Source of the DNA: Planctomycetota bacterium
GTDB lineage: Bacteria > Planctomycetota > UBA8108 > SXIK01
Assembly (NCBI GenBank): GCA_965223845.1
Contig: CBDCXR010000004.1
Location: 5,792,001-5,856,000, forward strand
DNA length: 64,000 nucleotides
Direction of reading: 5' to 3'
How positions within the stretch are numbered: the stretch's first letter is position 1; each line of letters opens with the position of its first letter. The notes under the pieces are model-generated. The model was not told the origin of the DNA. It ran no database searches and saw nothing but the letters and a program-made list of their open reading frames with translations. Position numbers and translations under genes: made by a program. Positions 22,548 to 38,350 of this stretch are shown in pieces.

Positions 22548-23887
22548 TCCGCGCGACTTCCGAGACGCAGCTCGAGCGTCACCGGCTTCCCGTCGCGGAC
22601 CACCTGCAGCTCGAGGAGGTCGCCGGGATGGTACGACTTGAGGAGCGCGGTGAGATCGACCGTCGACATGACCGACTTCATCGCCACCGTGCGGATCACG
22701 TCTTCGGGCTGAAGGCCCGCCACGGCCGCGGGTCCGTTCTTCACGATCTCATCGATCACGACCCCTTCGACGGGATCGACCACCGTGCGCGCCTGGAGTC
22801 CCAAGTACGGCTTCGCCCCTTCGTAGAGGGCTGCCTTCAGCTCCACTCCGTGATCGTCGCGGAGAACGCGCACCGTCACCCAGGAGCCCGCCGGGTAGGT
22901 TCCGATGATTCCGTGGAAGCGGTTCTCGGTCGTCGCGCGCAGGCCGTCGATCGACACCAGGCGGTCGCCTGCGCGGAATCCGTAGCGGTCGGCGGGCGAT
23001 TTCGCATCGACGCGGACGATCGGAAGACCTTCGCCCGAACCGACGCGCCGGCCGACGTGGAGGCCGTGAATCCGGCCGTGGCGGACCGCACCACCACCGG
23101 CGCGCTTGAGAGGTTCGAGAAAACGGCGGATCTGGTTGCTCGGGATCGCGTAGCCGACACCGGCGTTGATGCCGACGCCGAACGGATTCTCGATCTTGCC
23201 GTTGATTCCGACGACCTTTCCGTCGAGGGACAGAAGCGGTCCTCCGGAGTTGCCGGGGTTGACCGCCGCGTCGACCTGGATCGAGTCCGGGTAGGCGTGG
23301 GAGTAGCGGTGAACGGCGCTCACGATTCCGAAGGAAACGGCTGGCTCGTAGTCGGGCGGTGCGTCCTTCAAGAAGAGCTCCTGCGAACCGACGAGAAACG
23401 GATCGCCGACGGCGATCACCGGCTGTCCGATCTCGAGACGGTCCGAGTCGCCGAGCGTGAGGTGCGGCCGCCCGGGCGGCTCCCTGAGCTTCAAGAGCGC
23501 GAGATCACCGCCGGGATCGTGGCCGACGAGATCGGCCAAGAGATGTTTCCCGCGACGGAATTTGACGAGGAGCGCTTTCCGAACTCCGCCTCGTCCCATC
23601 ACGACGTGCTCGTTGGTGAGAACATAGCCGTCCTCGCTGACGAGAAATCCCGAGCCGCCCTGGATGAAGACGACGCTCTCCATAACTCGATCAACGGTTT
23701 CGACGAGCTTCGCCTCGAGCTGGCGAAGGCGTTCGAGGTCGCTGCTCGGGGGGAGGTCGAGGGAGCTCGTCGCCACGGGCGGAGCCTCGGCGGCGTTCGC
23801 TGCCTCACCGCCGATTTCGCTCGCGCGGAGTGCCGCCGCTCCGGCGAAGAGGAAAACCATCGCGAGGATCGAGCGGGACGCGATCAC
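22544..23887 (-). CDS. HtrA/DegP-like trypsin serine protease with two PDZ domains (intact triad)
   Basis: LTNEHVV, GDLALL, VNPGNSGGP; two PDZ segments (SPADRYG, GPAAVAGL); GTG 23887 overlaps upstream stop. Confidence 0.9.
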   Translation of the reverse strand: MIASRSILAMVFLFAGAAALRASEIGGEAANAAEAPPVATSSLDLPPSSDLERLRQLEAKLVETVDRVMESVVFIQGGSGFLVSEDGYVLTNEHVVMGRGGVRKALLVKFRRGKHLLADLVGHDPGGDLALLKLREPPGRPHLTLGDSDRLEIGQPVIAVGDPFLVGSQELFLKDAPPDYEPAVSFGIVSAVHRYSHAYPDSIQVDAAVNPGNSGGPLLSLDGKVVGINGKIENPFGVGINAGVGYAIPSNQIRRFLEPLKRAGGGAVRHGRIHGLHVGRRVGSGEGLPIVRVDAKSPADRYGFRAGDRLVSIDGLRATTENRFHGIIGTYPAGSWVTVRVLRDDHGVELKAALYEGAKPYLGLQARTVVDPVEGVVIDEIVKNGPAAVAGLQPEDVIRTVAMKSVMSTVDLTALLKSYHPGDLLELQVVRDGKPVTLELRLGSRAE

Positions 23888-25062
23888 GGGTTCCTCCTCG
23901 CTCCGAGCACGGCGTCGGTGGTGAGCGCGTCGCCGTCGCGGAGAAGTTCGATGTGGATGCTGTCTCCCGGCTTCTTGAAGAAGATCACTCGGCGAAGGTG
24001 GTCGAAGTTGTCGATCTCGATCCCATCGATCTTCAGAATGCGGTCGCCGCCTCGCAGGCCGGCCTTTGCCGCTCCGCTGTCCGGGAACACATCGCGTACG
24101 AGTGCGCCGGTCTCCCGAAAGTCGCTCTGATCCCAATAGATGCCGAGAAACGTCCGTGGTGGCGCGGAGATGGTCTCGCCGCGCTTGAGGCGCGGAAGGA
24201 TCTCGAGGAGGGTCGAGATGGTCGTTCCGAATCCCACCCCCGAGTTGATCCCCCACTGCGGCTGATGGTGGCCGACGAAGCTCGCGATCGCGACGACTTC
24301 GCCACTCAAATTGAGGAGCGGTCCGCCGACGTTTCCGTAGTTCAGCTCGGCGTCAGTTTGAAACGCTCGGCCACCGTTCCGGCCCATCGCGCTCACGATG
24401 CCCCGGGTCACGGTGAGGCGTCGGGGATCCGGCGATCGGCCGAGCGCGTAGACGAACTGCCCGGCTCGCGGCTTTCCTGCCGCCGCGAGTGGGAGCGCAG
24501 TGAGTCTCGGCATGGGTGCGGACTCGACCGTCACCGCCGCGTTCCGCTGCTCGGCGGGTGAGTTCGTCTCGCCTCGCTCCTCGTCGTCGTTCGACTCCGA
24601 CCGGATCGCGAGAAGCGCGACGTCGTCGAGCTCGCTCCGCCCGCGGATCTCCGCCGCGTGCTCGGTTCCGTCGGGGAGGATCACCGTGATCGACTTCAGC
24701 TTTCCCGCAACGTTGTAGAGACTCGTCAGGATGAGCCCGCTCGTATCGACGACGAAGCCGCTTACGACGTCTTTCGGGCGCTGGAAGTATGCCTTCGCCT
24801 CGTTGGGGCGGAGTCGCTGCGCCACGCGAGCCGCGGGGAGATCGCCGTCTTTCTCTCGCTCGACTCGCACTGCGACGGTAGCGGCCGCAGCGGCCTCGAG
24901 CAGATCGCCGAGCGACGAAGGACGGGCGGAAGTCGCTGCTCCCGTCTCCGTCTCCGCTGCGCGCGCGGAGTCGCCCATCGGCGGCGTTCCCGTTACGACG
25001 AGCGCGATCATCGCGGCGAGGAGAGGCGAGATCCATCCCGGCTGATTCGCGGTGCTCGTCAC
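23884..25062 (-). CDS. HtrA-like trypsin-PDZ protein, predicted catalytically inactive
   Basis: Trypsin fold motifs with ILTSLYNV (no His) and TDAELNYGNVGGP (Ser to Val); one PDZ domain. Confidence 0.85.
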   Translation of the reverse strand: MTSTANQPGWISPLLAAMIALVVTGTPPMGDSARAAETETGAATSARPSSLGDLLEAAAAATVAVRVEREKDGDLPAARVAQRLRPNEAKAYFQRPKDVVSGFVVDTSGLILTSLYNVAGKLKSITVILPDGTEHAAEIRGRSELDDVALLAIRSESNDDEERGETNSPAEQRNAAVTVESAPMPRLTALPLAAAGKPRAGQFVYALGRSPDPRRLTVTRGIVSAMGRNGGRAFQTDAELNYGNVGGPLLNLSGEVVAIASFVGHHQPQWGINSGVGFGTTISTLLEILPRLKRGETISAPPRTFLGIYWDQSDFRETGALVRDVFPDSGAAKAGLRGGDRILKIDGIEIDNFDHLRRVIFFKKPGDSIHIELLRDGDALTTDAVLGARRNP

Positions 25063-25063
25063 G

Positions 25064-26098
25064 CTAGAACTTCCCCCAGAGGAGAATCTTGACGACGCGC
25101 TCCTTTCCCTCGGCGCGCGTCTTCAGCTCGACCGACTCGCCGGGATGCTTCGCCTTGAGACGGCGGCGAAACTCCGCGGCTGAGGGCACCGGGGCGCCGT
25201 CGATTTCGAGCACGAAAGTCCCCGAGCGGAGCGCCGCTTCGGCCGCGGGGCTGTGGGGATCGACCGCGAGGATCCGCAGTGTTCTCGCGTCGGAGTCTTC
25301 GACGCGAAGCCCGAGGAAGGATCCCGTCGGCGCGATGCGTGCCTCCGGCACCGGTCGTCCCTCGGCCCGGGCGAGCTGCGTCCCGTCTCCGAGCACGTCC
25401 TCACCGACGTGCTCGCGCAAGAGATGTCGGATCGTATCGATCGGAATCGCCGTGCCGAGCCATCGACTCGTCGAGTAATTGAGGCTGAGAACTCCGATCA
25501 ACTGTCCGCGGCGACCGAGGAGCGGGCCCCCGTCCATGCCGTTGTTGACCGGCGCATCGGTCTCGATCACCGCGCCGGTGTGCGTCGCCTCCGATCTCGC
25601 TTCGGCCAGGCGAAAGAGCCCGCTGACGAGGCCGGACGCCATGACGACCTGATCGTCACGCTGGATGCTCTCGAACGCGTTCCCGAGCGTGTAGACGCTC
25701 TCTCCGAGTCGAACCGCCGCGGACCGGCCGATCGTCACGGCCGGGAAACGGGCGGTCTCATCGCTTTCGATGCGAAGGAGCGCGAACTCGAGTGACTTCT
25801 CGAGTCGAACCGGCTTTGCCGTGAGGACGCGCCCACCACGAAGGTAGATGCGGATTCTCGACGCCCCTTCGGGAACGACCGAGGTCGACGTGAGGACGAC
25901 GCCGCGCGAATCGACGATCGTCCCCGTGCCGAAGTAGCGACCGTTCGATGGTCCGCGGCACGTCACGCCGACGACAGCGGGTGACGCGCGGCGATAGACG
26001 GTCTGCGGATTCGGAATCGGTTCGCTCACCTCCGCGGCCCATCCCGCGGGAGCGGGCGCGCGTCCGAGACTGACGGCGACGAACGAGACCGCGAACAT
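25064..26098 (-). CDS. HtrA-like trypsin-PDZ protein, predicted catalytically inactive (start uncertain)
   Basis: GTGTIVD, VLTSTSVV (no His), LEFALL, TDAPVNNGMDGGP (Ser to Asp); one PDZ domain; signal-like MFAVSFVAVSLG. Confidence 0.8.
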   Translation of the reverse strand: MFAVSFVAVSLGRAPAPAGWAAEVSEPIPNPQTVYRRASPAVVGVTCRGPSNGRYFGTGTIVDSRGVVLTSTSVVPEGASRIRIYLRGGRVLTAKPVRLEKSLEFALLRIESDETARFPAVTIGRSAAVRLGESVYTLGNAFESIQRDDQVVMASGLVSGLFRLAEARSEATHTGAVIETDAPVNNGMDGGPLLGRRGQLIGVLSLNYSTSRWLGTAIPIDTIRHLLREHVGEDVLGDGTQLARAEGRPVPEARIAPTGSFLGLRVEDSDARTLRILAVDPHSPAAEAALRSGTFVLEIDGAPVPSAAEFRRRLKAKHPGESVELKTRAEGKERVVKILLWGKF

Positions 26099-26669
26099 CA
26101 CGCCTCGGAGAACGCCCCTCTCCCCCGGGCGCGGACTCGGGCTCCTCCGCGAACGAGTGCACCCGGCCGCGTTCCGTCGCTCTCCGACGGGCGGGGCCTC
26201 GGTTCGGGCTGGGCTCGACGTGGCTTCGAAGTCGTACAAAAAAAATCCGGGGATCGGGAGGCGGGTCGCGGAGGAAGGGTTCGTGACTTGAACGGGACTC
26301 CGGCGTCGAAATCGGGCCTTCGCACGGCGATTGCGCTCGCACAAAGACTTCCACATCCTGAGGTGTTTTGGGGGTTTCGTCAACAACGGCCCGGCGGGCG
26401 CTCGCGTCGGAACTCCGGCGCGCGTTTCCAGTTCGGGGACTCGACGGAGTCGGTTTGGCGGTCGCTCGGTAGGGGCTGGAACTCCACGACCGGATGAACT
26501 CGGTGGCGGCGACGGTAGAATTCGGTCGAAACGCAAGTAGGAGATCCTCAAGGAGCCGCGTCCGGCGAAACGCAGGATTCGTCCATCGTTTGAGTCTCGC
26601 ATGTCGTCGCCGCTACTCGGCTCGTCACTTTGCCGCTCGCCGATCCTCAGCTCACCGTGGAGCGAATCC

Positions 26670-29144
26670 ATGACCGATCGATCGTTGAACCCTTCGCGTG
26701 CTCTCGGGTTGCTCGTCTTTTGCTGCTTCGCGGCTACGGGGTTTGCCGAGGATCCCCCGGCCAAGAAGCCGAGCGAGGACGTCGTGAGTGCGGGCGGGTC
26801 GGGCGAGGACGAGAAGAAGAGCTCCGCGTCGCCGACCTCAACCGGGGCGGAGACGGACGCGGCGGACGCGGACGCGAGCGAGTCTCCGGCGGACCCCGCG
26901 GAAGACCCTCACTTTGCTGCGCTTCGCCGAGAGTTGCGCGCGCACGTCGAGAAGGTCGACGCGCTCGACTACCGCGCCCCCGATTTCCCCGCGGGGAAGG
27001 ACTGGATCAACTCGCCTCCGCTCAGCTTCGAGCGCGAGCTGAAGGGAAAGGTCGTCGTCCTCGACTTTTGGACGTACTGCTGCATCAACTGCATCCACAT
27101 CCTTCCCGATCTCGAAGCGCTCGAGGCGAAGTACGCCGGCTACCCCGTGGCGTTTGTCGGCGTTCATTCGGCGAAATTCGAAAACGAGAAGGTCTCCGAG
27201 AACATCCGCGCCGCCGTCGAGCGCTACGAAATCCATCACCCGGTGGTGAACGACGACGAGATGTTTCTCTGGCGGCGGCTCGGCGTGCGGAGCTGGCCGT
27301 CGCTCGTCGTCGTCGGACCGAAGGGGAATCTGCTTCTTATGGTCGCGGGCGAAGGGAATCGACTCGTGATCGATGCCGCGATTCAGGCCGCGCTCGAGTT
27401 CTATCCTCCCGAGGCGTTTCGCCACGAGCCGCTCCCCGCAGTGAAGAGCGCGCCGCTCGAGCGGGACGATTCCTCGCTCTTCTATCCGGGGAAGCTCGCC
27501 GTTGATGGCGCGAAGGGGCGGCTCTACATCAGCGACTCGAATCACCACCGCATCGTCGTGACTGATCTCGATGGTGAGTTCATCGCCGCGATCGGGAGTG
27601 GTCGGCGCGGCCTCCGCGACGGCACCTACGCAGAGGCGACGTTCTTTCGTCCGCAGGGCCTGGCGCTCGACGGCGAGCACCTCTACGTCGCCGATGCCGA
27701 GAACCATGCGCTCCGCCGCGTCGATCTCGACGCAGAGCGCGTCGAAACGGTGGTCGGCAACGGTACTCAAGGACGGGACTACTCCGGCGGAAAAACCGGC
27801 GCGGATCAGCCGATCAGCACACCGTGGGACGTCGTCGTGCACGAGCGCAGCGTCTACATCGCGATGGCAGGGACGCATCAGATCTGGATCTACGACATCC
27901 CCTCGGGAAGCTGCCGAAACTACAGCGGGACCGGTCGCGAGCAGAACTACAACCACTCTGATCGACTTGAAGCGGCCTGGGCGCAGCCCTCCGGACTCAC
28001 GATCGGCGACGGGTGGCTCTTCGTCGCGGACTCGGAGAGCAGCTCCGTGCGCGGCATCCAGCTCGCTTCCGGGAACACGCGAACGTTTGTCGGGGGCGAC
28101 GACAGCGAGCCGCGGAACCTCTTTGCGTTCGGGGACGAAGACGGCGAGGGCGACTCGGCGCGTCTTCAGCATTGTCTCGGTGTTCTCTGGCTCGAAGAGG
28201 AGCGGCGCGTTCTCGTCGCAGACACGTACAACCATCGCCTGAAGCTCGTTCGGCCGCTCGATCGCACGGTCCGAACGGTCGCCGGGAGCGGAAGCCGCGG
28301 AACGAAGGACGGGAGGGGGCTCGCCGCCGAGTTCTCCGAGCCCTCTGGGTTCGCGCTCCATCCCGATGGGAAGCGCGTCTATGTCGCCGATACGAACAAC
28401 CATCGCATCCGGCTCCTCGATCGAACGACGTTCGAGGTGACGACGCTCGAGCTGCGAAACGTCCCGCCCGCGAAGCCGGCGATCGATCGGGCGTCGGTGC
28501 GCCTCGCGAATCTTCCCGGCACGCCGACGGTGCGCGCGGAGACGCTCGAGCTCCGGCCGAAAGGGCGCGGCACGCTGCGCCTCGAGCTCGGACTTCCCCC
28601 CGAGCACCACTACACCGAGGGCGTTCAGAGCTCGTGGAAGGTGCTCGTCGACTCCGAGGCGGCGCCGGTGACGATTCCGAGCGACGCGATGCGCGGCGCG
28701 CTCGGCGCGACGTCGATCGCGATTCCGGTCGATGCGAAAGCGGAGAGCGGCGCGGGAACGATTCAGGTCGAGGCCGTCGCTTACTACTGCCGCGACGGGG
28801 GAGCGTGTCTCGTCGGCGCGGTGCTCTTCGAGGTGCCGGTCGTCGTCGATGAGCGGAGCGGCGAGCCGCTCGTCTTGCGCCATGTCTTCGGCGAGGGCGT
28901 GGGTACGAACATCCCGGCGCTCTTTCGCGGGAGCGGTGAGCCCGCGCCCGCGGTGGAGCCTTCGGAGCCGGAGACGTCGTCCGATTCGCGCGAGGAGTCG
29001 GATGCGCCGGCGAACGCGAACGGATCTCCGACTCCGAAGGTAGACGAAACCGAGAGAGATTCGCTGAACGAGACGGCGGGACCCGATGCGGAGACGGCGG
29101 GTAGCGATGAGACGAGCACACGGACGGGTAAGGGTTCCGAGTAA
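26670..29144 (+). CDS. Thioredoxin-like + NHL-repeat beta-propeller protein (NHLRC2/SOQ1-like)
   Basis: Signal-like N-terminus; LDFWTYCCINCIH, GVHSAKFENE; repeated YISDSNHHRI / YVADAENHALR / VADTYNHRLK / YVADTNNHRIR; C-terminal YYCRDGGAC. Confidence 0.92.
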   Translation: MTDRSLNPSRALGLLVFCCFAATGFAEDPPAKKPSEDVVSAGGSGEDEKKSSASPTSTGAETDAADADASESPADPAEDPHFAALRRELRAHVEKVDALDYRAPDFPAGKDWINSPPLSFERELKGKVVVLDFWTYCCINCIHILPDLEALEAKYAGYPVAFVGVHSAKFENEKVSENIRAAVERYEIHHPVVNDDEMFLWRRLGVRSWPSLVVVGPKGNLLLMVAGEGNRLVIDAAIQAALEFYPPEAFRHEPLPAVKSAPLERDDSSLFYPGKLAVDGAKGRLYISDSNHHRIVVTDLDGEFIAAIGSGRRGLRDGTYAEATFFRPQGLALDGEHLYVADAENHALRRVDLDAERVETVVGNGTQGRDYSGGKTGADQPISTPWDVVVHERSVYIAMAGTHQIWIYDIPSGSCRNYSGTGREQNYNHSDRLEAAWAQPSGLTIGDGWLFVADSESSSVRGIQLASGNTRTFVGGDDSEPRNLFAFGDEDGEGDSARLQHCLGVLWLEEERRVLVADTYNHRLKLVRPLDRTVRTVAGSGSRGTKDGRGLAAEFSEPSGFALHPDGKRVYVADTNNHRIRLLDRTTFEVTTLELRNVPPAKPAIDRASVRLANLPGTPTVRAETLELRPKGRGTLRLELGLPPEHHYTEGVQSSWKVLVDSEAAPVTIPSDAMRGALGATSIAIPVDAKAESGAGTIQVEAVAYYCRDGGACLVGAVLFEVPVVVDERSGEPLVLRHVFGEGVGTNIPALFRGSGEPAPAVEPSEPETSSDSREESDAPANANGSPTPKVDETERDSLNETAGPDAETAGSDETSTRTGKGSE

Positions 29145-29217
29145 ACCCGGGAGTTCGAGGAGTCCAGTTTGGGGGCTGTGAACACGCCGCTTTCCCAACG
29201 CGGCGGCCTCGTGCGAA

Positions 29218-30102
29218 TCAACGCGCACCTGGACGCGGCGGAAGACGTTGCGGAAGGAAGCGGATGTGAATCTTCCACTCGCGCAGATGTTCTTCTGATT
29301 CGAACCCAGCGTGGAACCGGGCAAATCCATCCGAGTAACTAGGCACCGACGGGGAGACCGCTTGATACACGTATTGCGCGTGGCTGGGAAGTAAAGGGTC
29401 ACGATCGAGACGTCGTCCCTCCAGCTTTTGCTCGAGAACCGGCCACCGATCTCGCGGAACCGAATTCCAGGGGAGTTCCTCAGGTTCTCGTCCCGGAAGG
29501 TAGACGTGTAGATCCACCAGCTCTTTCTTGGACGCGATAAACAGACCACGCCTCGGTGATAGGTACAACACAGGCGTCGACTCGAACCAGCGACTCGCTT
29601 CAAGTTCGAAGGCTAAAGCACGTGCGAGATCCCTCACATTACTCCGGCCGTCCAAGCCAAAACCACCTTGATCAATGAGTTCGGAGTGAACGACGCCCGA
29701 TTCGTCCCGCATGCTCGAGCCCCAAGAGAGGCTGTACTGAACGAAGTACGTGTCCGGACTCTTGACGTCCTCGTCGATGTCGACCTTCAGCAGAGCATTA
29801 CTCTGCGAGTTGCGAGATAAGTCCAAAGACTTCGCGACCGTGGCGTCTTGACAGAGTCTATAGTCTACAAGAGCTTCAGAGATTGCATTCGCGATCCGCG
29901 TCTCCAGCCACGGCGTTAAGAGCGGGGGCGGTGATCTCGTCGAGTCAGATCGGCGTTGAAGGACAACCACGGCGATTGCGAACGGGGGCGGCCGAAACGC
30001 TTGGACACGATCTAGTTCTGTAGCAGTAAAAACGGCGGGTCCGGAGCATCCGAGCGCTACGGACGATATGAGCCAGAGGCACGTTCTTCCAGGTATTCTC
30101 AT
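29218..30102 (-). CDS. Hypothetical lipoprotein, third gene of TIR-AAA operon
   Basis: MRIPGRTCLWLISSVALGC lipobox-like; ATGA overlap with upstream AAA gene; lower GC. Confidence 0.65.
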   Translation of the reverse strand: MRIPGRTCLWLISSVALGCSGPAVFTATELDRVQAFRPPPFAIAVVVLQRRSDSTRSPPPLLTPWLETRIANAISEALVDYRLCQDATVAKSLDLSRNSQSNALLKVDIDEDVKSPDTYFVQYSLSWGSSMRDESGVVHSELIDQGGFGLDGRSNVRDLARALAFELEASRWFESTPVLYLSPRRGLFIASKKELVDLHVYLPGREPEELPWNSVPRDRWPVLEQKLEGRRLDRDPLLPSHAQYVYQAVSPSVPSYSDGFARFHAGFESEEHLREWKIHIRFLPQRLPPRPGAR

Positions 30103-33100
30103 CGATTGCGCTCTCGTTGGACAAGCTCCTCCAGTCCCGGGCTCGGTTTCCGCTCGCCGCGTGACTCGACGTACGCGACCAAACGAAAACCGACGCGGTC
30201 TCGGGCGTGGTTGCTCCGATAGACGGAACGTCGCTGGACGCAGTCGCTGAAGACGGTACTCCAGCGGCCTCCGAGGTAAACGTAATCCTCGTCACGTGCC
30301 GCCACTTGCACAAGTTCGTCGACGTTCCCAAGTAGGTGCTGCAATCCTTGGAAAACTTCCGACTCGACTTTGGTGGGCTGACGCGGGTAGACACTCACCG
30401 GTCCTTCTCGCGACTCGAGCCCGTCGCGCAGACAAACTGTCTCGTTCCGAACTCGAATGAATTGCGTCTGGTCGACCTCGACGACCGTGCCGGCGGCGAT
30501 CCAGGGGTACGTGGGTATGTCTTGCCACTCTCCGAGTGTTGGAAGGTAAAGCATGGCGTCGGGCAACTCGTCGAATTTGGGCGCGACGTCCTCCGGGGAC
30601 ACGTTTGTCTGAGGAAGCCACTCGTCCGAGTCTTCCTCTGGAGGCTCGCTACCGGGATTCGCCCAGAACCACCGGGGGATCTCGGTCTGCGTGATATAGA
30701 ATCCTTCCTTCGGTGTCCCGATGAAAACCCAAGTGAGGCCCAGCCAGTTGAGGGTGGGTGGAGGCCGTCGCGGAGCGCACCGGGGTTCGATTACACACTC
30801 GCTGGTGGAAGGCTGAAGGTCACCGCGATCGGACGCCGTGATTGTGATCTTTTCATGCCGATTTCGGGGGATTGACGTGATGCGTAGGTCCACCTCCAAT
30901 GCAATCTGAAGATCGCCAACCTGGGTTCTCTTCCAGGTCGCTGACCAATTTGTCCCGGCGAGGCCATCGCGTTTCTCTCTCACTGCCGCTCCTACTACGA
31001 CCGCGACCTTTTCCTCGTCACCGCGGATAAGTTCGATGGACTCCACCCCGCTAGGGTCCGTTACGACAACGCTCATCTCGCACGCGTCGGCCTCGAGAGT
31101 CACCGGGCCGCTAGAACACTCCACCGGAAAACTCGAGTCTATAGACGGTGGGTCGCCGAGTATGGAAAGCGATGCTGCGGGCAAAGCTTGAATTCGGCCC
31201 CACTCATCGCTCCACGCGACCTCGAGGGCGTAGACACCTTCCGCGAGCTCCAGCTCGAAGCCGCCGTCCGCCGCGAAGTTGGATCGCACTACCCCCGAGG
31301 CGGACCTCGCGGTGATCGATCCGCGCGCGAACACCACGCCATCGGCAGGAGTCAACCGAAACTGCGTGAGTCCGGGCCGCGCGACTTTATCGGGAACGCT
31401 GGAGAGAATTCCCTCGGCTAGGGCGAACAGATCCCATCCAGGGACAATCTGAATCGGGAGTTCGATCGATCGATTCCAGTGAGTTTCGACATGAACATTG
31501 ATTGCGAGTGAATCGAGCTCGGTATCGTTCGGCGTCACCGGCTGTCGCCAACCGCTGCCCGTCAGGGAACCCGTCCAACTCACACGCGCTGGGTCGATTC
31601 CGTATTCGTGTTCTTCGCCGTCCCACTCGACGGTGAGGGCCGTAAACGGGTCGCGGTCGTCGCGGCGCCAAAAGAACACTCCGTTACGCAAGAGGAGGGC
31701 GCGTCGACCTAGGGAATACTCCGCAAAGACCTGAAAGTGCTCGAGTCGAGGAGACTTCTCCGGGTAGATCGGACCCTGTGCAACGATCGCGGACTCGGCG
31801 AACGCCGCCTCGTCTTTCGCGAGGAGCGTGAGTTCACCCATCTCCGTTTCAGGAAGCGAACGAAAACTCGCGGGCAGCTCTATGTTCCCGTCGGCTTCGA
31901 GCCTGACGTTACCGGTCGATTCCCCGTCCCCCCATGTTAGCCGCCAGGAAAAAGAGAGTTGCTCGCTCGACGCCGCTCTCAATCCATCGATAGCCACTCG
32001 TCCACCGGGGAGCCGCCGAGGATTCCACTGTGTCGCCGGAAAATCCGGCCCGCTGTCGAGTAGCAGATCGAGGCGCTCGACGATTGGCTCTCCGACCTTG
32101 GGCCTGGCCTCGATCTCGACTCGCAACGGCGCGCCGGTGGCCGTCGCAGGCGGAAGCGAGATGCCGTGTTCGTTGAGGCTGACCACGAAGCTGCCCGATT
32201 CCGATCGTTCGTCGAGCGAAACGCGCGCACTTCGTCCGCCCGCAGCGCTCACGAAGAGCCCGACCGAGCCCGATTCCTCCGAACTAGCTGGGACGCGAAG
32301 CGTCTCCGGCATGCCGGCCCCGTCGACAGTGAATTCCAGTACGATATCTCGGTCTTCGTCGACCTCGGCCATGGAGACTCTCACGGCACTCTCCGCGTCG
32401 CGGAGGTCGAAGGAGGGAGAATCGTCTTTCCCGCGCCTTTTGAGCCGCAGAAGCTGTAGTTGGGATGGCGAGGCGGGTGCGACAGCGATCTCGAAAAACT
32501 GTATGAACTCCCGCGCGTTGCTTCCGAGGCGCCCGCGCAAGGCTAGAGCTCTCCGGACCACCGAGCGAGGATTCTCTCCGACTTCCTCACGGATCGCTTG
32601 CAACATTACAGGGATGTTGAGCCGGATACGGTCGGGCTCGACCCGGATCCAACCTCGGTTGTCGGGCAAGACCGATTTCTCCTCAACCTGCGTCCGCTCA
32701 GCGTTTATGCCCAAGATCAATAATTCGACGTCCGCAACGCCTTCCGGAATCTCGCGCGAGTCTCGTGTCTCGTTCGTTCTGAATCTCCACGGCTCGAACC
32801 AGAGCACGCGCCGATCGTATTGGCGCTCCTGGAAGGTCCAAGATTCTTTTTCGACTTCCTCGTATCGGCCCTCGGGCGTCCCTTCCCAGAAGCTAGCAAT
32901 TGGTTGTGGGGGCTGATTTCCGAACAGCACGAGCCACGCCACCACCAGCATGGCGATCGACAACAACCCGAGGAGTGTGGGCACGACTGCATCGCGCGGC
33001 GTGACCGTTCTCAACCACGCCGCATCGAACACCCGTCGGTAGATTTCGTTTCGTACGACTAATCGACTCCGTTCGTCGCGTCTCAGCAAGCCAGAGAGTC

Positions 33101-34091
33101 TTGCCAACGTGTGGAGCTTCGAAGCGCTATCGCGCATCGGCTTCCCCCGCAAAGCGGAACGATACAGCTTGAGTAGCTCGGCTGGTCGATCCGAGCGCTC
33201 AGACACGAAACTCGCGATCCGCTGGAAATGGGTGTCGTGCTCGGGCATCGAATCGAGGCTGACAAATCGCGTAGAAACGAGCTCGTCGAGCGCGTCAGTC
33301 TCGCGCAGTTCTTGCTCGACGACGTATCCGGCGAGACGTTGCGTCAGGTAGGGCTGGCCGGAAGTCCAACGCAGAATCGCATTAAGCATCGAGTCTGCGT
33401 CGGGAACTTCGCGAGCGAGGGCATCTCGAATCGGAGACAAGTCATCCTTCGCAGAATCGAAGTCCCGCAGGCTCACATTCTCGCCGACATTGAACGGCGT
33501 CGCCCGCTTGCTCTTAATGAGCTCGTCCGGAGCAGCGACTCCCACCAACGCAAAGGTCACGCGCTCGAAGTCGGGATGCCCGGCACGGTCGTTGTAGAGG
33601 CCTCGGATAGCGAAGAAGAAGTCGTCTGTATAGTCGAGCTCAAGAGTCGAGTCGATCTCGTCGATGATCGCGATCCATCGCTCGTCGTTTCCACCGACCA
33701 ACTGCTCGAAGAACGCGATCAGCCTCTGATTCGGCGTACCGTCCTGCTTCCGCCACCAGGCTGAGAGTCCGCCTTCAAGTTGAACCTCCCAGTCTCGAAC
33801 CAGCTTTCTCAGGAGCCCTCGGTACCACTCCGCGACTCCCTCCGGTCGGCCGAGTTCCGAGGCGAGATCGATCTTCGCGACTCGGCACCCGTTCTTTTCG
33901 AGTCGGTCACCGATTCGATTCATTAGGCTCGTCTTGCCGACCTGGCGCGCCGAGACGACGTTTGTGTACTCACTCCGCAAGAGCAGGTCAAAGACTCGAT
34001 TCTCGACATCACTGCGCACGACGTAGACGTGTCGCTTGAAGTCGAGCGCTCCGCCCGCACGAAGCATTCGGGGACGGTTTGATCCGTTCAA
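30099..34091 (-). CDS. AAA-like (AAA_35-type) ATPase - TM helix - large extracytoplasmic region - FGE/sulfatase-modifying-fold domain
   Basis: YVVR, Walker A SARQVGKTSL, Walker B IIDEID, TPFNVG, WTSGQPYLTQRL, RNEIYRRVF; TM LLGLLSIAMLVVAWLVLF; C-terminal FYITQTEI, LPTLGEW, GLQHLLGNVDE, GGRW, VGFRLV. Confidence 0.85.
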   Translation of the reverse strand: MNGSNRPRMLRAGGALDFKRHVYVVRSDVENRVFDLLLRSEYTNVVSARQVGKTSLMNRIGDRLEKNGCRVAKIDLASELGRPEGVAEWYRGLLRKLVRDWEVQLEGGLSAWWRKQDGTPNQRLIAFFEQLVGGNDERWIAIIDEIDSTLELDYTDDFFFAIRGLYNDRAGHPDFERVTFALVGVAAPDELIKSKRATPFNVGENVSLRDFDSAKDDLSPIRDALAREVPDADSMLNAILRWTSGQPYLTQRLAGYVVEQELRETDALDELVSTRFVSLDSMPEHDTHFQRIASFVSERSDRPAELLKLYRSALRGKPMRDSASKLHTLARLSGLLRRDERSRLVVRNEIYRRVFDAAWLRTVTPRDAVVPTLLGLLSIAMLVVAWLVLFGNQPPQPIASFWEGTPEGRYEEVEKESWTFQERQYDRRVLWFEPWRFRTNETRDSREIPEGVADVELLILGINAERTQVEEKSVLPDNRGWIRVEPDRIRLNIPVMLQAIREEVGENPRSVVRRALALRGRLGSNAREFIQFFEIAVAPASPSQLQLLRLKRRGKDDSPSFDLRDAESAVRVSMAEVDEDRDIVLEFTVDGAGMPETLRVPASSEESGSVGLFVSAAGGRSARVSLDERSESGSFVVSLNEHGISLPPATATGAPLRVEIEARPKVGEPIVERLDLLLDSGPDFPATQWNPRRLPGGRVAIDGLRAASSEQLSFSWRLTWGDGESTGNVRLEADGNIELPASFRSLPETEMGELTLLAKDEAAFAESAIVAQGPIYPEKSPRLEHFQVFAEYSLGRRALLLRNGVFFWRRDDRDPFTALTVEWDGEEHEYGIDPARVSWTGSLTGSGWRQPVTPNDTELDSLAINVHVETHWNRSIELPIQIVPGWDLFALAEGILSSVPDKVARPGLTQFRLTPADGVVFARGSITARSASGVVRSNFAADGGFELELAEGVYALEVAWSDEWGRIQALPAASLSILGDPPSIDSSFPVECSSGPVTLEADACEMSVVVTDPSGVESIELIRGDEEKVAVVVGAAVREKRDGLAGTNWSATWKRTQVGDLQIALEVDLRITSIPRNRHEKITITASDRGDLQPSTSECVIEPRCAPRRPPPTLNWLGLTWVFIGTPKEGFYITQTEIPRWFWANPGSEPPEEDSDEWLPQTNVSPEDVAPKFDELPDAMLYLPTLGEWQDIPTYPWIAAGTVVEVDQTQFIRVRNETVCLRDGLESREGPVSVYPRQPTKVESEVFQGLQHLLGNVDELVQVAARDEDYVYLGGRWSTVFSDCVQRRSVYRSNHARDRVGFRLVAYVESRGERKPSPGLEELVQRERNR

Positions 34092-34122
34092 TTCCGAACC
34101 TCGCTAATCGAATCTCGGAGCG

Positions 34123-36171
34123 TCAAACGTTTTTGAAGTATCGTGCATAGAGCAGATTGGCGGGGACGACCTTCTTGCCGTCGCGTCTTACGAGTCCCGC
34201 GGCTTCGAGGCGATGGACCATGTCTCGAGCCGGCGTCCTCCGAGTTCTCATGAACTTTCGCAGCGGATCGAGTAGCTGGCCATCTGTGAGCAGGCCAAGC
34301 AAAGCTCGCAAGTGATCTCCGAACGGTCCCCGATCGTGATCCGCCATTTCGTCGAGATCGTCGAAGCTCATTCCTTCCTCGCGCATTCGGTAAAGAGATA
34401 GCCGGGTAAGATACGGATGGCCGCCTAGCAAATCGTGAATTCGAGGGATGTTTTGCTCTGCCAATACGCCGTGGTGAGATCGATTCAACTCGGCGCAGCC
34501 ATCTTCACCGAACGGACTGAGCCGAAGCGGGTCGGTAACGTTGAATGGAGAGCGATACGGGCTAGTGATCAGGAGAGATGGATCCGTGGAAATCGAGAGA
34601 GCCAGGCTGAACGCGTGGAACGGCCGCTCGATTCGCTCGTGCCAGCCGCGCAGCATCGTGTAAAAGTCTTCGGCGTATTTTCGTCCATACAAGCGATCGA
34701 CGTCGTCCAGCGCAAGGACGACAGGAGAGTTTTGATCCGCGCGCAATCTCTCCTCCACGAACTCGTTCATGTCGATCTGGTTTCGAATGGTGACGTTCTC
34801 ACGAGTTCCCTCTGACCGAAGGAGTGCACGCGCGAGTCCGGTCAGAAACGAGCCGTAGGATTCGAGATCATCGTGAGTAAAGTACAACGCCAAATTGACG
34901 AACCAGATTTTTCGTTCTCGTCTTTTGCAATCGAGCAGGTATCTAAGCAACAAGCTGCTCTTCCCGAATTGTCGAGGTGCCTTGAGCACCAGTGTCTCCT
35001 TGTCGTTCGCGGCTCGTCGTTCGACGATCGAATCCTCCCGACGCATGACATAGTGAGGATCGTGTTCGGGAATCTTGGCGTCGAAGAAGAGCACCCGCGG
35101 GTCCGCTTCGGAGAGAGGCCGGGGCGACTCTCGAGTGTCGGCCGGAACCGGGTCTTTACTCTGTGAGCCTTTTCGCGGCGTGCCGGCGGCATAAGGAGTG
35201 ATTTCGGTTGAAGAGATGTTCGACGACGGGTCCGCAATTGCCACGCACAGTTCGTCGAGAATCGCCTGGGAATCTTCGCGCGAAGAAAAGAACAGATGGT
35301 GCAGGTGGTCGACGAAGTGGCCGATCACCCAATCGAGGTCGTCGAGGTAGTTGACGCGAACCGGAAAGATTCGGAGCTTGCCTTCGCGAGCCCGACTGCC
35401 CGCGCGCTTGACTTCACCCATCACCGCCTCGCTGCTCGCTGAATGTTCTGAGAGAAGCAAAACGAAGCAGTCACACCAATCGACGCGTCTCGCGATGGTC
35501 AGCCACCAATCTTCACCCGCTTTGAGCCCGAGGTCCGCAAACACTTCGTGACTGGCACGGTTAAATCCATCAACGAGGAAGCGCGCTAGATTCTCTTCTG
35601 ACGGATTGCGGTGCGTATACGAAACAAACACCTTTCGCCGCGACTCGGACGAAATCTTGAGCGAAGAGGGGACTGCGTCGAGTTCGAGCGGGACCGGAGA
35701 GCCCAGGGGCTCCGGCACGACCTCCGGCTCTTCGCGTATCCTGCGGACCAGATTGCTGTAGCCTTCGTCGTCCGACACGTCGAAGAAAGTGTGTCCGCGA
35801 AGAGGCCGGGGAATGAGTTCCGATGAGCCAACGTCGAAGAGAACGGGGATGTACCGCCCCGGATCCTTTCGTTCGTACAGCTCGTTGTAGATTTGCCGGG
35901 CCTCCCAGATAACTCCGTTGCCGGTCTCGTCCTTCCCGGTCAGGCGACGGAAGTACTGGGCCGTGCAGACAAGGAGGATGAAGTCGGCGCTGCCGATGCG
36001 CTCCTCCATCCATCGCGGCCAGCCCTGTTCCGGCCAAGGTTCGAACCGATCGACCCACGCGTCGATGCCGTCTGTCCGAAGCCGCTGCGTCAGTCCGAGC
36101 ACGCGCTCTCGATGCTCGGGAGAGTCGTGACTGTAGCTCACGAAAACTTCGGGAGGATTTTCGGGCGACAT
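34123..36171 (-). CDS. SEFIR/TIR - TIR - AAA-like (AAA_35-type) ATPase
   Basis: VFVSYSHDS...WPRWME...ADFILLVCT...GVIWE; second VFVSYTH...CFVLLLSEHSASSEAVMGEV; Walker A APRQFGKSSL, Walker B LALDDVD, SPFNV, GGHPYL. Confidence 0.9.
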   Translation of the reverse strand: MSPENPPEVFVSYSHDSPEHRERVLGLTQRLRTDGIDAWVDRFEPWPEQGWPRWMEERIGSADFILLVCTAQYFRRLTGKDETGNGVIWEARQIYNELYERKDPGRYIPVLFDVGSSELIPRPLRGHTFFDVSDDEGYSNLVRRIREEPEVVPEPLGSPVPLELDAVPSSLKISSESRRKVFVSYTHRNPSEENLARFLVDGFNRASHEVFADLGLKAGEDWWLTIARRVDWCDCFVLLLSEHSASSEAVMGEVKRAGSRAREGKLRIFPVRVNYLDDLDWVIGHFVDHLHHLFFSSREDSQAILDELCVAIADPSSNISSTEITPYAAGTPRKGSQSKDPVPADTRESPRPLSEADPRVLFFDAKIPEHDPHYVMRREDSIVERRAANDKETLVLKAPRQFGKSSLLLRYLLDCKRRERKIWFVNLALYFTHDDLESYGSFLTGLARALLRSEGTRENVTIRNQIDMNEFVEERLRADQNSPVVLALDDVDRLYGRKYAEDFYTMLRGWHERIERPFHAFSLALSISTDPSLLITSPYRSPFNVTDPLRLSPFGEDGCAELNRSHHGVLAEQNIPRIHDLLGGHPYLTRLSLYRMREEGMSFDDLDEMADHDRGPFGDHLRALLGLLTDGQLLDPLRKFMRTRRTPARDMVHRLEAAGLVRRDGKKVVPANLLYARYFKNV

Positions 36172-36792
36172 GGTGGGAACCGACCCCGGCGCTGCGCATC
36201 GAATGAACTCCCGCGCTGCCGGGTTCGTGTTTTGGGATTCCTATGCGTTGACGAATTTTCTCGAAGCGCCGAGATCAGTAGGCAAGTCTTCAGACGACGA
36301 GCCCGGCCGGTCACGTGTCGATACTCGCTGCGAAGGCTCATACTAATAAACGGGAACGAATGGTTGGAACCGCGAATCGTGAGAAAACCCGAGGTAAATC
36401 GGTTTCGTGTCGAGATCGAATTGGATCGATTCAACAGATTTTCTCTGAGCGTCCGTTCCGATTCTCTTCAACCATCGGTTCCGTCGAGGGAATAAACGAA
36501 ACGACACACTGGTAGGCAACTTCGGGGGTATGAAGGCGCGACGAGGTCGGGTTTGGATTTGGCCGAGCTAGCGCGTTGTCGCCCGCCGTTCGGCGGTTAC
36601 TCCGAGCTTTCGCAGCGAGAATCGACAGTTTCGCGCATATCGTGTAGCTCCGAACGCCTTCGTTGGCCTCACGTCCGGAAGGTAGGCCGACGGTCGCTTC
36701 GTCACGCTTCGTTAGCGCTCGCGGGGAAGCCTTCGATCGCCGGCTCTAGTCTGCCTCGCGGTTGAAGAGACGCGCCGAGTTCGAGCGAGAAC

Positions 36793-37572
36793 TCACTTCT
36801 GCGTCGCCAGCCGAACGAACTTGGGAGCGTCACTCCAGCCCTTCTCTAGGGCCACGCGCTCGAACATTCCGGGGAGCGGGGCACGAATCGTTCGCTCGCC
36901 GCCGAGGATGTCGGCCGGCAGCACGACCTCGGTGCAGTGAAGCAGAAAGTGCGGCACGCCGAATCGCTCGAGGAATTGCTCGGCGGGTCGAGGCTTTCCG
37001 TAGCGCCGGTCGCCGCCGAGGGGGTGCCCTTGCTGTGCGAAGAGCGCGCGCACGAGATGTCGGCCTCCGTCCCGAACGTTCGCTTCGACGAGGCTCAGGC
37101 GCTCGTCGCTCGCGATCGTGTGGTAGGAGAGCGCAGCGTCTCGACGTTCGTACCGGTGCCCGACGCGCGTCCGCAGCTTGCCCCGAATCTCCCCTTCGGC
37201 CGCGAGCGGGCCGGCGACGACGGCAACGTATCGCCTCTCGATCTCGCCCGCGCTGAACGCGGCCTGAAGGCGACGCGCCATCGCCCGGCGAGTCGCGAGG
37301 AGAAGAACACCCGTCGTCTCGAGATCGTGATGCTGAACCGGGAGCGGGCGCTTCCCCACCTTGAGGTCGAGGACGCCCGGATGGCACCGCCCCCACTCGG
37401 CGACGATGTCCGCGATTCCTCGATCGTGGCCCGTGCCTTCGTCGACGGGGATTCCGGCAGGCTTGTCGATCGCGAGGAGGCCGCCGCCCTGAAAGAGAAC
37501 GCGGTCGGGACCGAACTCGTCCGGTTCTTCGCGTTCCGCGCTGTCGCTCGGAGGTCGTTCGCCCGTCGCCAT
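36793..37572 (-). CDS. RluA-family RNA pseudouridine synthase
   Basis: IDKPAGI, QHHDLETTGVLL (HRLD-equivalent), RYVAVV, GGRHLVR, GHPLGGDRRYG, LLHC. Confidence 0.82.
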   Translation of the reverse strand: MATGERPPSDSAEREEPDEFGPDRVLFQGGGLLAIDKPAGIPVDEGTGHDRGIADIVAEWGRCHPGVLDLKVGKRPLPVQHHDLETTGVLLLATRRAMARRLQAAFSAGEIERRYVAVVAGPLAAEGEIRGKLRTRVGHRYERRDAALSYHTIASDERLSLVEANVRDGGRHLVRALFAQQGHPLGGDRRYGKPRPAEQFLERFGVPHFLLHCTEVVLPADILGGERTIRAPLPGMFERVALEKGWSDAPKFVRLATQK

Positions 37573-37582
37573 CGCTCTCAGC

Positions 37583-38350
37583 TTACTGGCCGTAGTAGAT
37601 CCCGCCGTTGACGTGGATCACTTCCCCGCTGATGTACGCCGCCGCCGGCGAGGCGAGGAAGGCGACCGCACCGGCGACATCTTCATTCGTACCGGCTCGC
37701 TTCATCGGGACGTGCGAGAGGAGCTGCTCGAACATCGCGGGGTCGGTGTGCACTTCGTGAAATGCGTTGTCGATCACTCCCGGGGCGACCGAATTGATGG
37801 TGATCCCCTTCCCGGCGTAATCCTTCGTGAGCGTGCGCGCGAGATTCGACACCGCCGCTTTCGCCGGTCCGTAGTGGGGAGTCGTCGCCGCTCCGCCGTT
37901 GTGTCCGGCGACCGACGAGATGTTGATCACGCGACCGTCGCCGGTGCGGACCATATGCGGGATGACGGCTTTCGTTACCAGAACCACGCTCGAGAAGTTG
38001 AGGCGCAGGACCTCGTCGAGCAGCTCGGGGGTCAACTCCTCGAGATGCGCTCGCTTCACCATGCCCCCGGCGTTGTTGACGAGGATATCGATCCTTCCGG
38101 ATCCCAACGATAGCGCCTCTTCGACGACGCGGTTGATCTCCCCTTCTCGCGTCGCGTCGCCCTGGATGGCGACCGCGCGACGACCCAAATCTTCGATCGC
38201 GCCCGTAGTCGCGCGGGCTGCGTCCGCACTCTGGTGGTAGTTGATCGCGACGTCGGCGCCGAGGCTCGCGAGCTCGAGCGCGACGGCTCTTCCAATATCG
38301 CGCGCACCTCCGGTGATGAGGGCGGTCTTTCCGCTCAAATCAAACAGCAT
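37583..38350 (-). CDS. SDR-family oxidoreductase
   Basis: TGGARDIG, LVNNAG, NISS, YGPAK, VAPG, ISGEVIHVNGG. Confidence 0.93.
   Translation of the reverse strand: MLFDLSGKTALITGGARDIGRAVALELASLGADVAINYHQSADAARATTGAIEDLGRRAVAIQGDATREGEINRVVEEALSLGSGRIDILVNNAGGMVKRAHLEELTPELLDEVLRLNFSSVVLVTKAVIPHMVRTGDGRVINISSVAGHNGGAATTPHYGPAKAAVSNLARTLTKDYAGKGITINSVAPGVIDNAFHEVHTDPAMFEQLLSHVPMKRAGTNEDVAGAVAFLASPAAAYISGEVIHVNGGIYYGQ

Follow-up and report, generated by a model that had tools for sequence, protein, structure and literature searches.

Can a bacterium divide one immune receptor between two genes, with a sensing ATPase that reaches through the cytoplasmic membrane and a paralogous ATPase that answers inside? 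This question is raised by a locus at positions 29218-36171 of a 64,000-nucleotide stretch of Planctomycetota DNA (contig CBDCXR010000004.1), which is called the window below; positions are counted from its first letter. The locus is filled by three co-oriented open reading frames (ORFs) on the minus strand, termed genes A, B and C:

34123-36171, minus strand: gene A, 682 aa, SEFIR - TIR - AAA_35, the A-type output-bearing ATPase (ORF, Pfam)
30099-34091, minus strand: gene B, 1330 aa from a TTG start, AAA_35 - transmembrane (TM) helix - ectodomain - FGE-like end, the B-type sensor-bearing ATPase
29218-30102, minus strand: gene C, orphan ORF of 294 aa with a predicted lipobox at Cys19, signal at 30046-30102 (pattern match)

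A sequence-only reading had taken the three genes for a single system, in which A carries TIR effectors, B a sensor on a paralogous ATPase, and C a lipoprotein that assists in sensing. The survey of related loci described here establishes that A and B are inherited as a unit and constitute a conserved two-gene module.

The A/B gene pair

A and B carry paralogous ATPases, 26% identical over 318 aa (E 1e-12), of the AAA_35 family (PF14516, cut-off 27 bits). Against the 331-position model A scores 165 bits (positions 4-330) and B 65.4 bits (positions 5-329). The motifs RQxGK[ST]S, PFNV and G[HQ]PYL, which the sequence-only reading had noticed in both proteins, are indeed seen in both translations and are kept family-wide. 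Walker A and Walker B read PRQFGKSS and LALDDVD in A and ARQVGKTS and AIIDEID in B; the P-loop NTPase signatures GK[ST] and hhhhD[DE] are intact in both AAA_35 types. The Walker A Lys, the Walker B acidic pair, SPFN/TPFN and GHPYL are kept in 81 A-type and 70 B-type sequences.

Relatives were collected from both sides of the pair. For the A side, an alignment of A with 22 relatives and three peptide patterns were applied to 185,579 species genomes, one per species, and 295 stretches were confirmed; the counts below come from the best 80 loci of these 295, which hold 81 A-type genes. For the B side, metagenome contigs were scanned with an alignment of the B-type ATPase, which confirmed at least 352 stretches, the best 80 being examined, and 2.9 million viral contigs were scanned with two peptide patterns, which gave one locus. 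A B-type gene adjoins the A-type gene in 78 of the 80 A-side loci: 72 of these B-type genes follow directly on the same strand, four are divergent and two precede the A-type gene on the same strand. The other two loci, which show no B-type gene, are uninformative: in L060 the contig stops 150 bp behind A, and in L050 A stands at the start of the locus and a B-type gene is absent from the 10 kb downstream of it. Among the 81 B-side loci (80 metagenome and one viral), the A-type gene lies directly upstream in 64 and 1.5-2.9 kb upstream in two; no A-type gene is present in the available sequence of four, and 11 are not judgeable with less than 1.2 kb upstream, which leaves an A-type gene upstream in 66 of 70 informative loci. 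The pairwise distances of the A and B ATPases correlate strongly (r = 0.92, 68 pairs; reached by 0 of 999 permutations), and the six loci nearest to A are also the six nearest to B. Near-obligate pairing from both sides, together with this co-divergence, supports the view that A and B belong together.

By record title, the 80 A-side loci comprise Cyanobacteria (38), Acidobacteriota (14), Chloroflexota (12), myxobacterial/deltaproteobacterial records (4), Rhodothermales (3), Proteobacteria (3), records labelled Heliobacteria (2), Verrucomicrobiota (2), Pirellulaceae (1) and one unlabelled record. The pair thus spans at least nine phylum-level groups, and with the numbers of confirmed genome and metagenome stretches given above it is common as well.

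Two loci depart from the usual setting. L028 has two tandem A-type genes (913 and 554 aa) ahead of one B-type gene (L028:8780-16135). L164, an IMG/VR contig of 12.9 kb, bears the sole pair on a contig filed as viral; it could be prophage cargo or misfiled.

In the locus table the A-type ATPase match reaches within a few residues of the C-terminus, and the B-type match starts near the N-terminus; A-types are therefore without a sensor and B-types without an effector. Outputs were scanned in 79 A-type N-termini, that of A and those of the 78 genes, out of 81 A-types, that have at least 100 residues before the ATPase. TIR_2 is present in all 79, preceded by CHAT in 27, Pkinase in four, Trypsin_2 in two, EAD7 in one and SEFIR in two (A and L027). 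The B-side loci contain 11 intact A-types without a match to the second TIR of A, 10 of which were scanned (L140 was left out): two have CHAT, one Pkinase, one TIR_2, two Trans_reg_C with BTAD, three Trans_reg_C alone and one a weak HTH. In L112, L119, L129, L155 and L163 an OmpR-type Trans_reg_C output, with or without BTAD, thus replaces TIR while the B-type partner is kept. Such DNA-binding outputs in sister pairs indicate that the chassis is a general outside-in signalling device and not an exclusively immune one.

The sensor side is equally varied. Behind the ATPase, 64 of 78 B-type genes encode a hydrophobic helix, as do 39 of 59 database homologues of B. Among the 14 B-types for which no helix was called, three ORFs end at most 12 residues past the ATPase match, five have a hydrophobic segment elsewhere, the ATPase match being cut short, and six have none at the threshold. 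WD40 repeats are found in 38 of the 61 complete B-type tails and a canonical FGE-sulfatase domain in 12 (E 1.4e-60 for the tail of L003). The B-type protein of L016 (L016:12540-14846) has a GH25 muramidase and TPR behind the TM helix, a peptidoglycan-directed domain in place of WD40 or FGE; the tails of L026 and L019 match no family, and that of L032 has sigma-70 region 4 and no TM helix. Database homologues of B add LRR, LRR+FGE, TPR, CHASE2, GAF and PD40 tails, and include single-chain cytosolic TIR-AAA_35-repeat proteins (P0017, P0025, P0027, P0031). The survey for swapped domains that had been suggested for paired AAA_35 loci thus reveals variation in both outputs (TIR, CHAT, kinase, Trans_reg_C) and sensors (WD40, FGE, GH25).

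Two of the relatives carry a diversity-generating retroelement (DGR). An RVT_1 reverse transcriptase gene stands just after the FGE-tailed B-type gene of L003 and likewise of L029, and the 3' end of that B gene (122 nt in L003, 112 nt in L029) recurs 1.6-1.7 kb downstream with 86% or 84% identity, respectively (L003:13349-15218, L029:5128-6917). All mismatches are located on adenines of the downstream (template) copy, 17 of 17 in L003 and 18 of 18 in L029, which is the signature of a DGR; a fragment of the same reverse transcriptase is found in L011. These elements in relatives provide the strongest indication that the FGE ectodomain may be a ligand-binding surface under diversifying pressure. 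The earlier view of the C-terminal part of B as the variable, extracytoplasmic, ligand-binding end gains support from these elements and from the varied tails.

Proteins A, B and C of the window

Protein A contains three domains:

35689-36159, minus strand: SEFIR/TIR_2 domain, aa 5-161 (Pfam TIR_2 5.3e-34; SEFIR 4.9e-16, residues 8-131)
35272-35643, minus strand: second TIR domain, aa ~177-300 (Pfam TIR 1.2e-05 on 182-292)
34132-35079, minus strand: A-type AAA_35 ATPase with winged helix, aa 365-680 (Pfam 2.5e-48)

The SEFIR part matches PADLOC bSEFIR at 2.6e-49 and the SEFIR structure 5y8e in the PDB at 1.7e-17, and the second TIR matches PADLOC Aga_TIR at 1.2e-10. Glu90 (GVIWE; codon 35902-35904) is nearly invariant in 23 SEFIR-AAA_35 relatives, and Glu253 (VMGEV; codon 35413-35415) is the same in all 79 A-type TIR domains. 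The description of A as two tandem TIR-superfamily domains, each with a Glu, ahead of an AAA-like ATPase therefore holds. Because the Walker, SPFN and GHPYL motifs are conserved and the TIR Glu is invariant, the ATPases and the TIR are predicted to be catalytically competent. The second-TIR insertion is seen in A alone among 22 SEFIR-AAA_35 relatives.

The AlphaFold2 (AF2) model of the A ATPase has a pLDDT of 89.4 and a pTM of 0.86. In Foldseek its nearest structures are the archaeal Walker-type ATPases 2qen (E 2.5e-9, TM-score 0.65) and 2fna, followed by Avs3 (8dgc), Cdc6/Orc1, Apaf-1, MalT, CED-4 and Roq1. The probability is 1.0 for Avs3, Apaf-1, MalT, CED-4 and Roq1, and the ORC/Cdc6 scores are equally good, so that the fold does not separate STAND from ORC-like AAA+ proteins. 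The model thus depicts what appears to be an AAA+ core joined to helical and winged-helix domains, in the manner of oligomerising STAND/ORC-like proteins. A sequence search of the PDB gave no solved structure matching AAA_35. For the predicted complex of the A and B ATPases the scores were 0.26 and 0.13, where the mark is 0.32; having no controls, this prediction is used neither for nor against binding.

Protein B is divided as follows:

33027-34049, minus strand: B-type AAA_35 ATPase, aa 15-355 (Pfam 5.2e-18)
32910-32996, minus strand: single TM helix, aa 366-394 (Kyte-Doolittle, 19-aa window, up to 2.61)
30783-32909, minus strand: predicted extracytoplasmic region without family, aa 395-1103 (no Pfam match; topology from hydropathy)
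30162-30782, minus strand: putative divergent FGE-sulfatase (FGS / C-type-lectin-like) domain, aa ~1104-1310 (hhalign)

A paralogous ATPase and one TM helix, as first described, are what Pfam and the one hydrophobic segment at 366-394 give. The helix is flanked by Arg on its N-side and by acidic residues on its C-side, which fits an N-in/C-out orientation. Beyond AAA_35, no Pfam, PADLOC or NCBIfam family was found in B. The ectodomain had been put at ~730 aa and called beta-rich; its length is ~710 aa, and in the AF2 model strands are seen for residues 900-1110, which are modelled entirely as beta-sandwiches (pLDDT 70-87). The model of residues 900-1330, built from an 8-row alignment, has a mean pLDDT of 56.7, and over the FGE-like part (~1115-1330) the pLDDT is 24-55, mostly below 50, and too poor for fold comparison.

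The FGE-like end is recognized through profile-profile comparison. Against 12 canonical FGE tails of B-type relatives, hhalign gives 93.9-94.8% (E 1.5e-7 to 1.1e-8) over 163-192 columns, with the motifs LPT-EW, GNV-E-V, GG-W and GFR aligned; three unrelated alignments and a reversed FGE alignment, run as controls, give at most 0.5%. A hidden Markov model of the 12 tails matches B weakly (E 0.068 in an 8-sequence database). The protein-atlas clusters nearest to the end of B are all FGE-sulfatase (0.85-0.87), which is a lead only, and the B relative P0184 matches Pfam FGE-sulfatase at 1.8e-4 with 21.7 bits, under the cut-off of 23.3. In B itself Pfam finds no FGE-sulfatase at E <= 1, and searching the PDB by sequence with the final 250 aa of B gave only a chance match (E 0.62). 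Of the families expected from Pfam, SEFIR/TIR_2 and AAA_35 were thus returned and FGE-sulfatase was not.

The catalytic formylglycine-generating enzyme has, as we take it, paired active-site cysteines placed after a GGS[WF] motif. In B, the stretch GGRWSTVFSDCVQRRS contains a single Cys after GGRW, and the canonical FGE tails of B-type relatives (e.g. L003) have no Cys in the aligned stretch. A catalytic FGE at the end of B was rejected on this ground, the position of the catalytic pair being the one assumed above. The claim of a C-terminal, non-catalytic FGE fold is consequently retained in its non-catalytic part and, through hhalign, as a candidate fold; it finds no backing in Pfam, and the AF2 model is unusable for it.

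A full HMMER search with residues 400-1330 of B found 7 relatives among 1.84 billion representatives: three Ser/Thr kinases of ~1430-1450 aa, one TIR_2 protein of 1171 aa and three proteins of 410-424 aa. In the long relatives (kinases P0183, P0187 and P0188; TIR protein P0185) a TM helix stands behind the cytoplasmic head, and the ectodomain of B is colinear with theirs, sharing an FFEI-V-P motif and the invariant columns W-L-W, YLPT-EW, H-GNV-E-V, GG and GFRL; the matches in the mid-region have E 4.7e-7 and 1.2e-6 in a four-sequence search. Recurrence on kinase-TM and TIR-TM proteins is the pattern expected of a sensor cassette. The ectodomain of B may thus be a cassette of ~930 aa that is mounted on kinase, TIR or AAA_35 heads, with the kinase and TIR forms as putative single-chain receptors. 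The window locus appears to be an unusual member of the pair family, because its SEFIR+TIR tandem is without match among the 22 SEFIR-AAA_35 relatives and its ectodomain is nearly an orphan.

The ORFs sit exactly where the three co-oriented genes with 31-bp and -4-bp junctions had been placed. GAGG stands 7 nt 5' of the TTG start of B, which lies 31 bp from A; a database copy of B (P0004, 1322 aa) begins eight codons later at the ATG at 34067, which gives an A-B gap of 55 bp. Genes B and C overlap by 4 bp (ATGA), suggesting co-translation. Residues 1-19 of C match the PROSITE-style lipobox MRIPGRTCLWLISSVALGC, with 2 Arg in the first 7 residues, and the codon-position GC1/2/3 of C (0.64/0.48/0.59) is like that of A and B. 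A word search gave no homologue of C among 5.8 billion clusters, and C was found in 0 of 40 related genomes and in no fetched A- or B-side locus; the nearest protein-atlas clusters are DUF4823/lipoprotein at 0.89, a sub-threshold lead only. A third gene was looked for behind 74 plus-strand B-types, where 15 leave no room and 34 have no co-oriented ORF of at least 100 aa within 200 bp. A co-oriented ORF lies downstream in 25 of the 59 with room; one of these 25 has a lipobox and two have a hydrophobic N-terminus. As a lipoprotein, C remains a candidate by its lipobox pattern, the sole basis for the call. Its proposed role as co-sensor is not sustained: a third lipoprotein gene does not belong to the module, and C is an orphan. 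Gene C is probably a locus-specific accessory or an unrelated gene, outside the conserved system.

Mechanism and alternative explanations

How might the pair work? A and B would be the halves of a heteromeric STAND-like (AAA_35) outside-in signalling module. B would act as the receptor, with a cytoplasmic ATPase, one membrane helix and, outside, a non-enzymatic FGE/C-type-lectin-like ligand binder; A would be the output subunit, which has no sensor of its own and bears SEFIR and TIR on the paralogous ATPase. Binding of a ligand outside would shift the nucleotide state or the conformation of the B ATPase, which would then nucleate co-assembly with the A ATPase. Assembly would bring the TIR domains of A together, and the clustered TIRs would become active in NAD+ hydrolysis, or in making a nucleotide signal, upon which the threatened cell would arrest growth or die. 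Bacterial TIR proteins are known for NADase chemistry and for roles in phage defence. We infer the A-B assembly, the direction of signalling, the NADase chemistry, the immune role and the ligand alike. That B senses a ligand outside and its ATPase activates that of A, so that SEFIR and TIR fire and growth stops or the cell dies, is in our judgement somewhat probable. We propose more tentatively, and with less than even confidence, that the pairs represent a widespread, so far undescribed class of bacterial outside-in immune receptors, in which a periplasmic sensor activates a cytosolic paralogue by hetero-oligomerisation. A periplasmic sensor domain, hypervariable and in some lineages rewritten by a DGR, would spot a threat, such as an adsorbing phage, a predator or non-kin cells, before entry.

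In favour of an immune reading are the kinds of effector found, the DGRs, a patchy distribution and an atypical composition. GC content at third codon positions (GC3) is 0.67 in A, 0.69 in B and 0.59 in C, compared with 0.76-0.81 in five neighbours. Among 201 sampled genomes of the phylum, AAA_35 occurs in 8 (6 above cut-off), and an adjacent pair in just two, that of the window (G000) and G135; the source genome (7.9 Mb, 4 contigs) has no AAA_35 gene besides A and B. A conflict or immunity system gained by horizontal transfer is most likely, given this atypical GC3 and the patchy occurrence in its own phylum.

Bacterial STAND/NLR-like antiphage proteins with TIR effectors include Avs and bNACHT. 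The NLR-like defence proteins known from bacteria consist of one cytosolic chain and detect phage proteins once these have entered. The present pair resembles Avs and bNACHT in combining an effector and a variable sensor with an oligomerising P-loop NTPase that has a winged helix, and the fold of the A ATPase resembles Avs3, Apaf-1, MalT and Roq1 (Foldseek). In contrast, its NTPase is AAA_35 rather than NACHT or NB-ARC, with the archaeal 2qen and 2fna as nearest folds, and effector and sensor are distributed over two paralogous NTPases, with the sensor predicted outside the cytoplasmic membrane. The tripartite one-chain STAND architecture is thus divided here, the effector being on A and the sensor on B; fused cytosolic homologues exist.

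By analogy, the predicted extracellular ligand-binding domain, single TM helix and clustering of cytoplasmic TIR recall Toll-like receptors, and the two paralogous NTPases that stand side by side with divided tasks recall the paired (sensor/helper) NLRs of plants. Toll-like receptors have no NTPase, and plant paired NLRs are cytosolic. Neither is homologous to the pair in its ectodomain or in its architecture as a whole. The likeness to Thoeris consists in a TIR with a conserved Glu at the catalytic position and in weak ThsB (E 0.0065-0.013) and ThcB4 matches. Thoeris was rejected, because the locus contains no gene for a ThsA-type or other signal-binding effector. For NCBIfam ThcB4 the score is 25.7 bits, where the cut-off is 220.

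A role in phage defence is described for SEFIR proteins (Millman et al. 2022, bioRxiv 10.1101/2022.05.11.491447). In the parts of that preprint covered, proteins are selected by a SEFIR match stronger than the TIR match in HHsearch. A shares the N-terminal SEFIR domain with the single-gene bSEFIR system, and it is the SEFIR domain alone that matches; A further contains a second TIR and an AAA_35 ATPase, and it has B as its partner. On the same stretch of A, Pfam TIR_2 scores 117.8 bits and SEFIR 59.8, and A covers the PADLOC bSEFIR profile at positions 37-195 of 412 only, so that neither a stronger SEFIR match nor a full-length profile is found by these tools, the authors' HHsearch not having been reproduced.

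Further parallels come from two studies. Kaur, Burroughs, Iyer and Aravind (2020, PMC7159879) describe NTP-dependent conflict systems of multicellular prokaryotes. As far as their main text goes, these systems have TIR, CHAT/caspase-like, trypsin and EAD effectors, FGS/FGE variable modules, DGR links and some membrane-proximal versions, and are enriched in cyanobacteria and other filamentous bacteria, all of which is reminiscent of the pair. They differ in being built on MoxR-vWA with VMAP or iSTAND, or on GAP1-N/EACC, and neither AAA_35 nor 'paired' was found in the main text, the source data being outside the search. Dore et al. (2024, PMC10907252) describe DGR-diversified STAND-CLec 'antigen sensors' with nSTAND1, NACHT and KAP NTPases. 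In the parts of the article covered, these sensors join a STAND NTPase to a C-terminal FGE/CLec domain that a DGR mutates, a periplasmic location is predicted for some, effectors of TIR or peptidase type lie nearby, and a two-ATPase AAA_35 pair is unmentioned. L003 and L029 are of this kind, whereas the window locus is without a DGR.

PADLOC (2023) matches only the SEFIR and TIR domains of A and nothing in either ATPase, B or C. No paper was found for 'PF14516' in the literature searched, those listed for 'AAA_35' were unrelated, and no description of the A/B pair was found, subscription journals and supplements being largely outside the search. The source data of Kaur et al. and Tables S5/S6 of Millman et al., likewise outside it, may list these proteins. 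To this extent, the statement that no named system has this layout agrees with what was found. The pair appears to differ from known STAND/NLR-like and TIR/SEFIR systems in its NTPase family, in the split of output and sensor, and in a sensor predicted to lie outside the membrane.

Several observations weigh against the proposed outside-in immune receptor. Adjacency and co-divergence follow from linkage alone, so that contact between A and B stays a prediction. About 940 aa of B are predicted to lie outside, a topology derived from hydropathy and charge alone, and the FGE assignment is made by profile-profile comparison alone, with Pfam and AF2 silent. The covered parts of Millman et al. (10.1101/2022.05.11.491447) treat SEFIR as an interaction domain, with a mutant D40A, and do not present it as a proven NADase. 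No DGR repeat was found at 28000-38000 of the window and, with the L029 enzyme as query, no reverse transcriptase in its genome (91.7% complete); the window locus as a DGR target was rejected, as neither reverse transcriptase nor template repeat was found. The locus is outside any defence island, its surroundings are housekeeping or ordinary regulatory genes, and no integrase, tRNA or recognisable defence gene adjoins it. Near the locus there is also no downstream effector for a TIR-made signal, though the rest of the genome may hold one. Judged by domain content, the chassis is also put to ordinary gene regulation, so an immune role is not family-wide. A purely immune reading is weakened in particular by the transcription-factor outputs and the housekeeping neighbourhood.

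In an unlikely alternative, the module is a transmembrane signalling device that responds to self or environmental cues (envelope stress, contact between cells, kin recognition, developmental death in filamentous or social bacteria) and the TIR version makes a second messenger or runs a programmed cell death unrelated to phage. In its favour, five of the 10 scanned A-types without a match to the second TIR carry OmpR-type Trans_reg_C with or without BTAD, and it suits the mostly filamentous or social lineages of the pair (by record title 38 cyanobacterial, 12 Chloroflexota and 4 myxobacterial/deltaproteobacterial of the 80), the housekeeping genes around the window locus and the finding of just one locus on a viral contig. 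However, the dominant outputs (TIR, CHAT, trypsin, EAD7) are those catalogued for conflict systems in the main text of Kaur et al. (PMC7159879), a DGR-diversified sensor is typical of antigen recognition in the parts of Dore et al. (PMC10907252) covered, and patchy distribution with atypical GC3 fits a mobile accessory trait.

Less probable again is a guard or antitoxin arrangement, in which B restrains A at the membrane and damage to B or its removal, by envelope injury, phage-induced membrane changes or proteolysis of the ectodomain, frees A to self-assemble and fire its TIRs. The pairing and co-divergence data fit it equally; A-types carry a complete, apparently active ATPase and could oligomerise alone, and L028 sets two A-types ahead of one B. 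Hypervariable, DGR-diversified ectodomains nevertheless suit recognition of a specific ligand more than a passive tether, and B keeps Walker A and B motifs that a mere anchor does not need. It is very improbable that A is a self-contained bSEFIR/TIR-STAND-type defence protein and B merely a syntenic membrane protein, since the PADLOC bSEFIR match of A and the single-chain cytosolic TIR-AAA_35-repeat proteins that speak for this are set against A-types without any sensor region, adjacency in 78 of 80 and 66 of 70 loci over at least nine phylum-level groups, and a match limited to the SEFIR domain.

If the receptor model with B as sensor and A as output is true, the pair would be a prokaryotic counterpart of the logic of Toll-like receptors combined with paired NLRs, the window locus being its SEFIR+TIR, FGE-lectin version, and detection at the surface would be linked to an internal response through TIR, caspase-like, kinase or transcription outputs. 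As a system of two proteins, the pair would be tractable for studying how paired NLRs split sensing from execution. DGR hypermutation ties it to the question of what DGR-diversified 'antigen sensors' recognise, and the mix of transcriptional and cell-death outputs would show a signalling chassis recruited into immunity.

Genomic setting

The neighbours of the locus encode HtrA-like proteases, an NHL/thioredoxin protein, a pseudouridine synthase, an SDR and a hybrid histidine kinase. Around the locus no convincing island signs were found, either as att-like flanking repeats or as tRNAs. The scan for promoter-like sites gave 0, and terminator-like sites did not exceed the shuffle expectation. 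The public runs listed with the stretch are four DNA runs from one study, with no RNA run among them.

We also note some features of the flanks. The 620-bp non-coding stretch upstream of gene A contains a 31-nt inverted repeat (window 36316-36346 / 36597-36627), whose arms are 84% complementary and 250 nt apart. On the other side, a convergent NHL/thioredoxin gene abuts gene C, and past it lie two adjacent HtrA-like genes (Trypsin_2 + PDZ) at 23884-25062 and 25064-26764, minus strand. A canonical FGE-sulfatase encoded on its own (314 aa, Pfam 7e-54) is situated 11 kb from the locus at 47491-48435 on the plus strand; its sequence is unrelated to the divergent FGE-like end of B.

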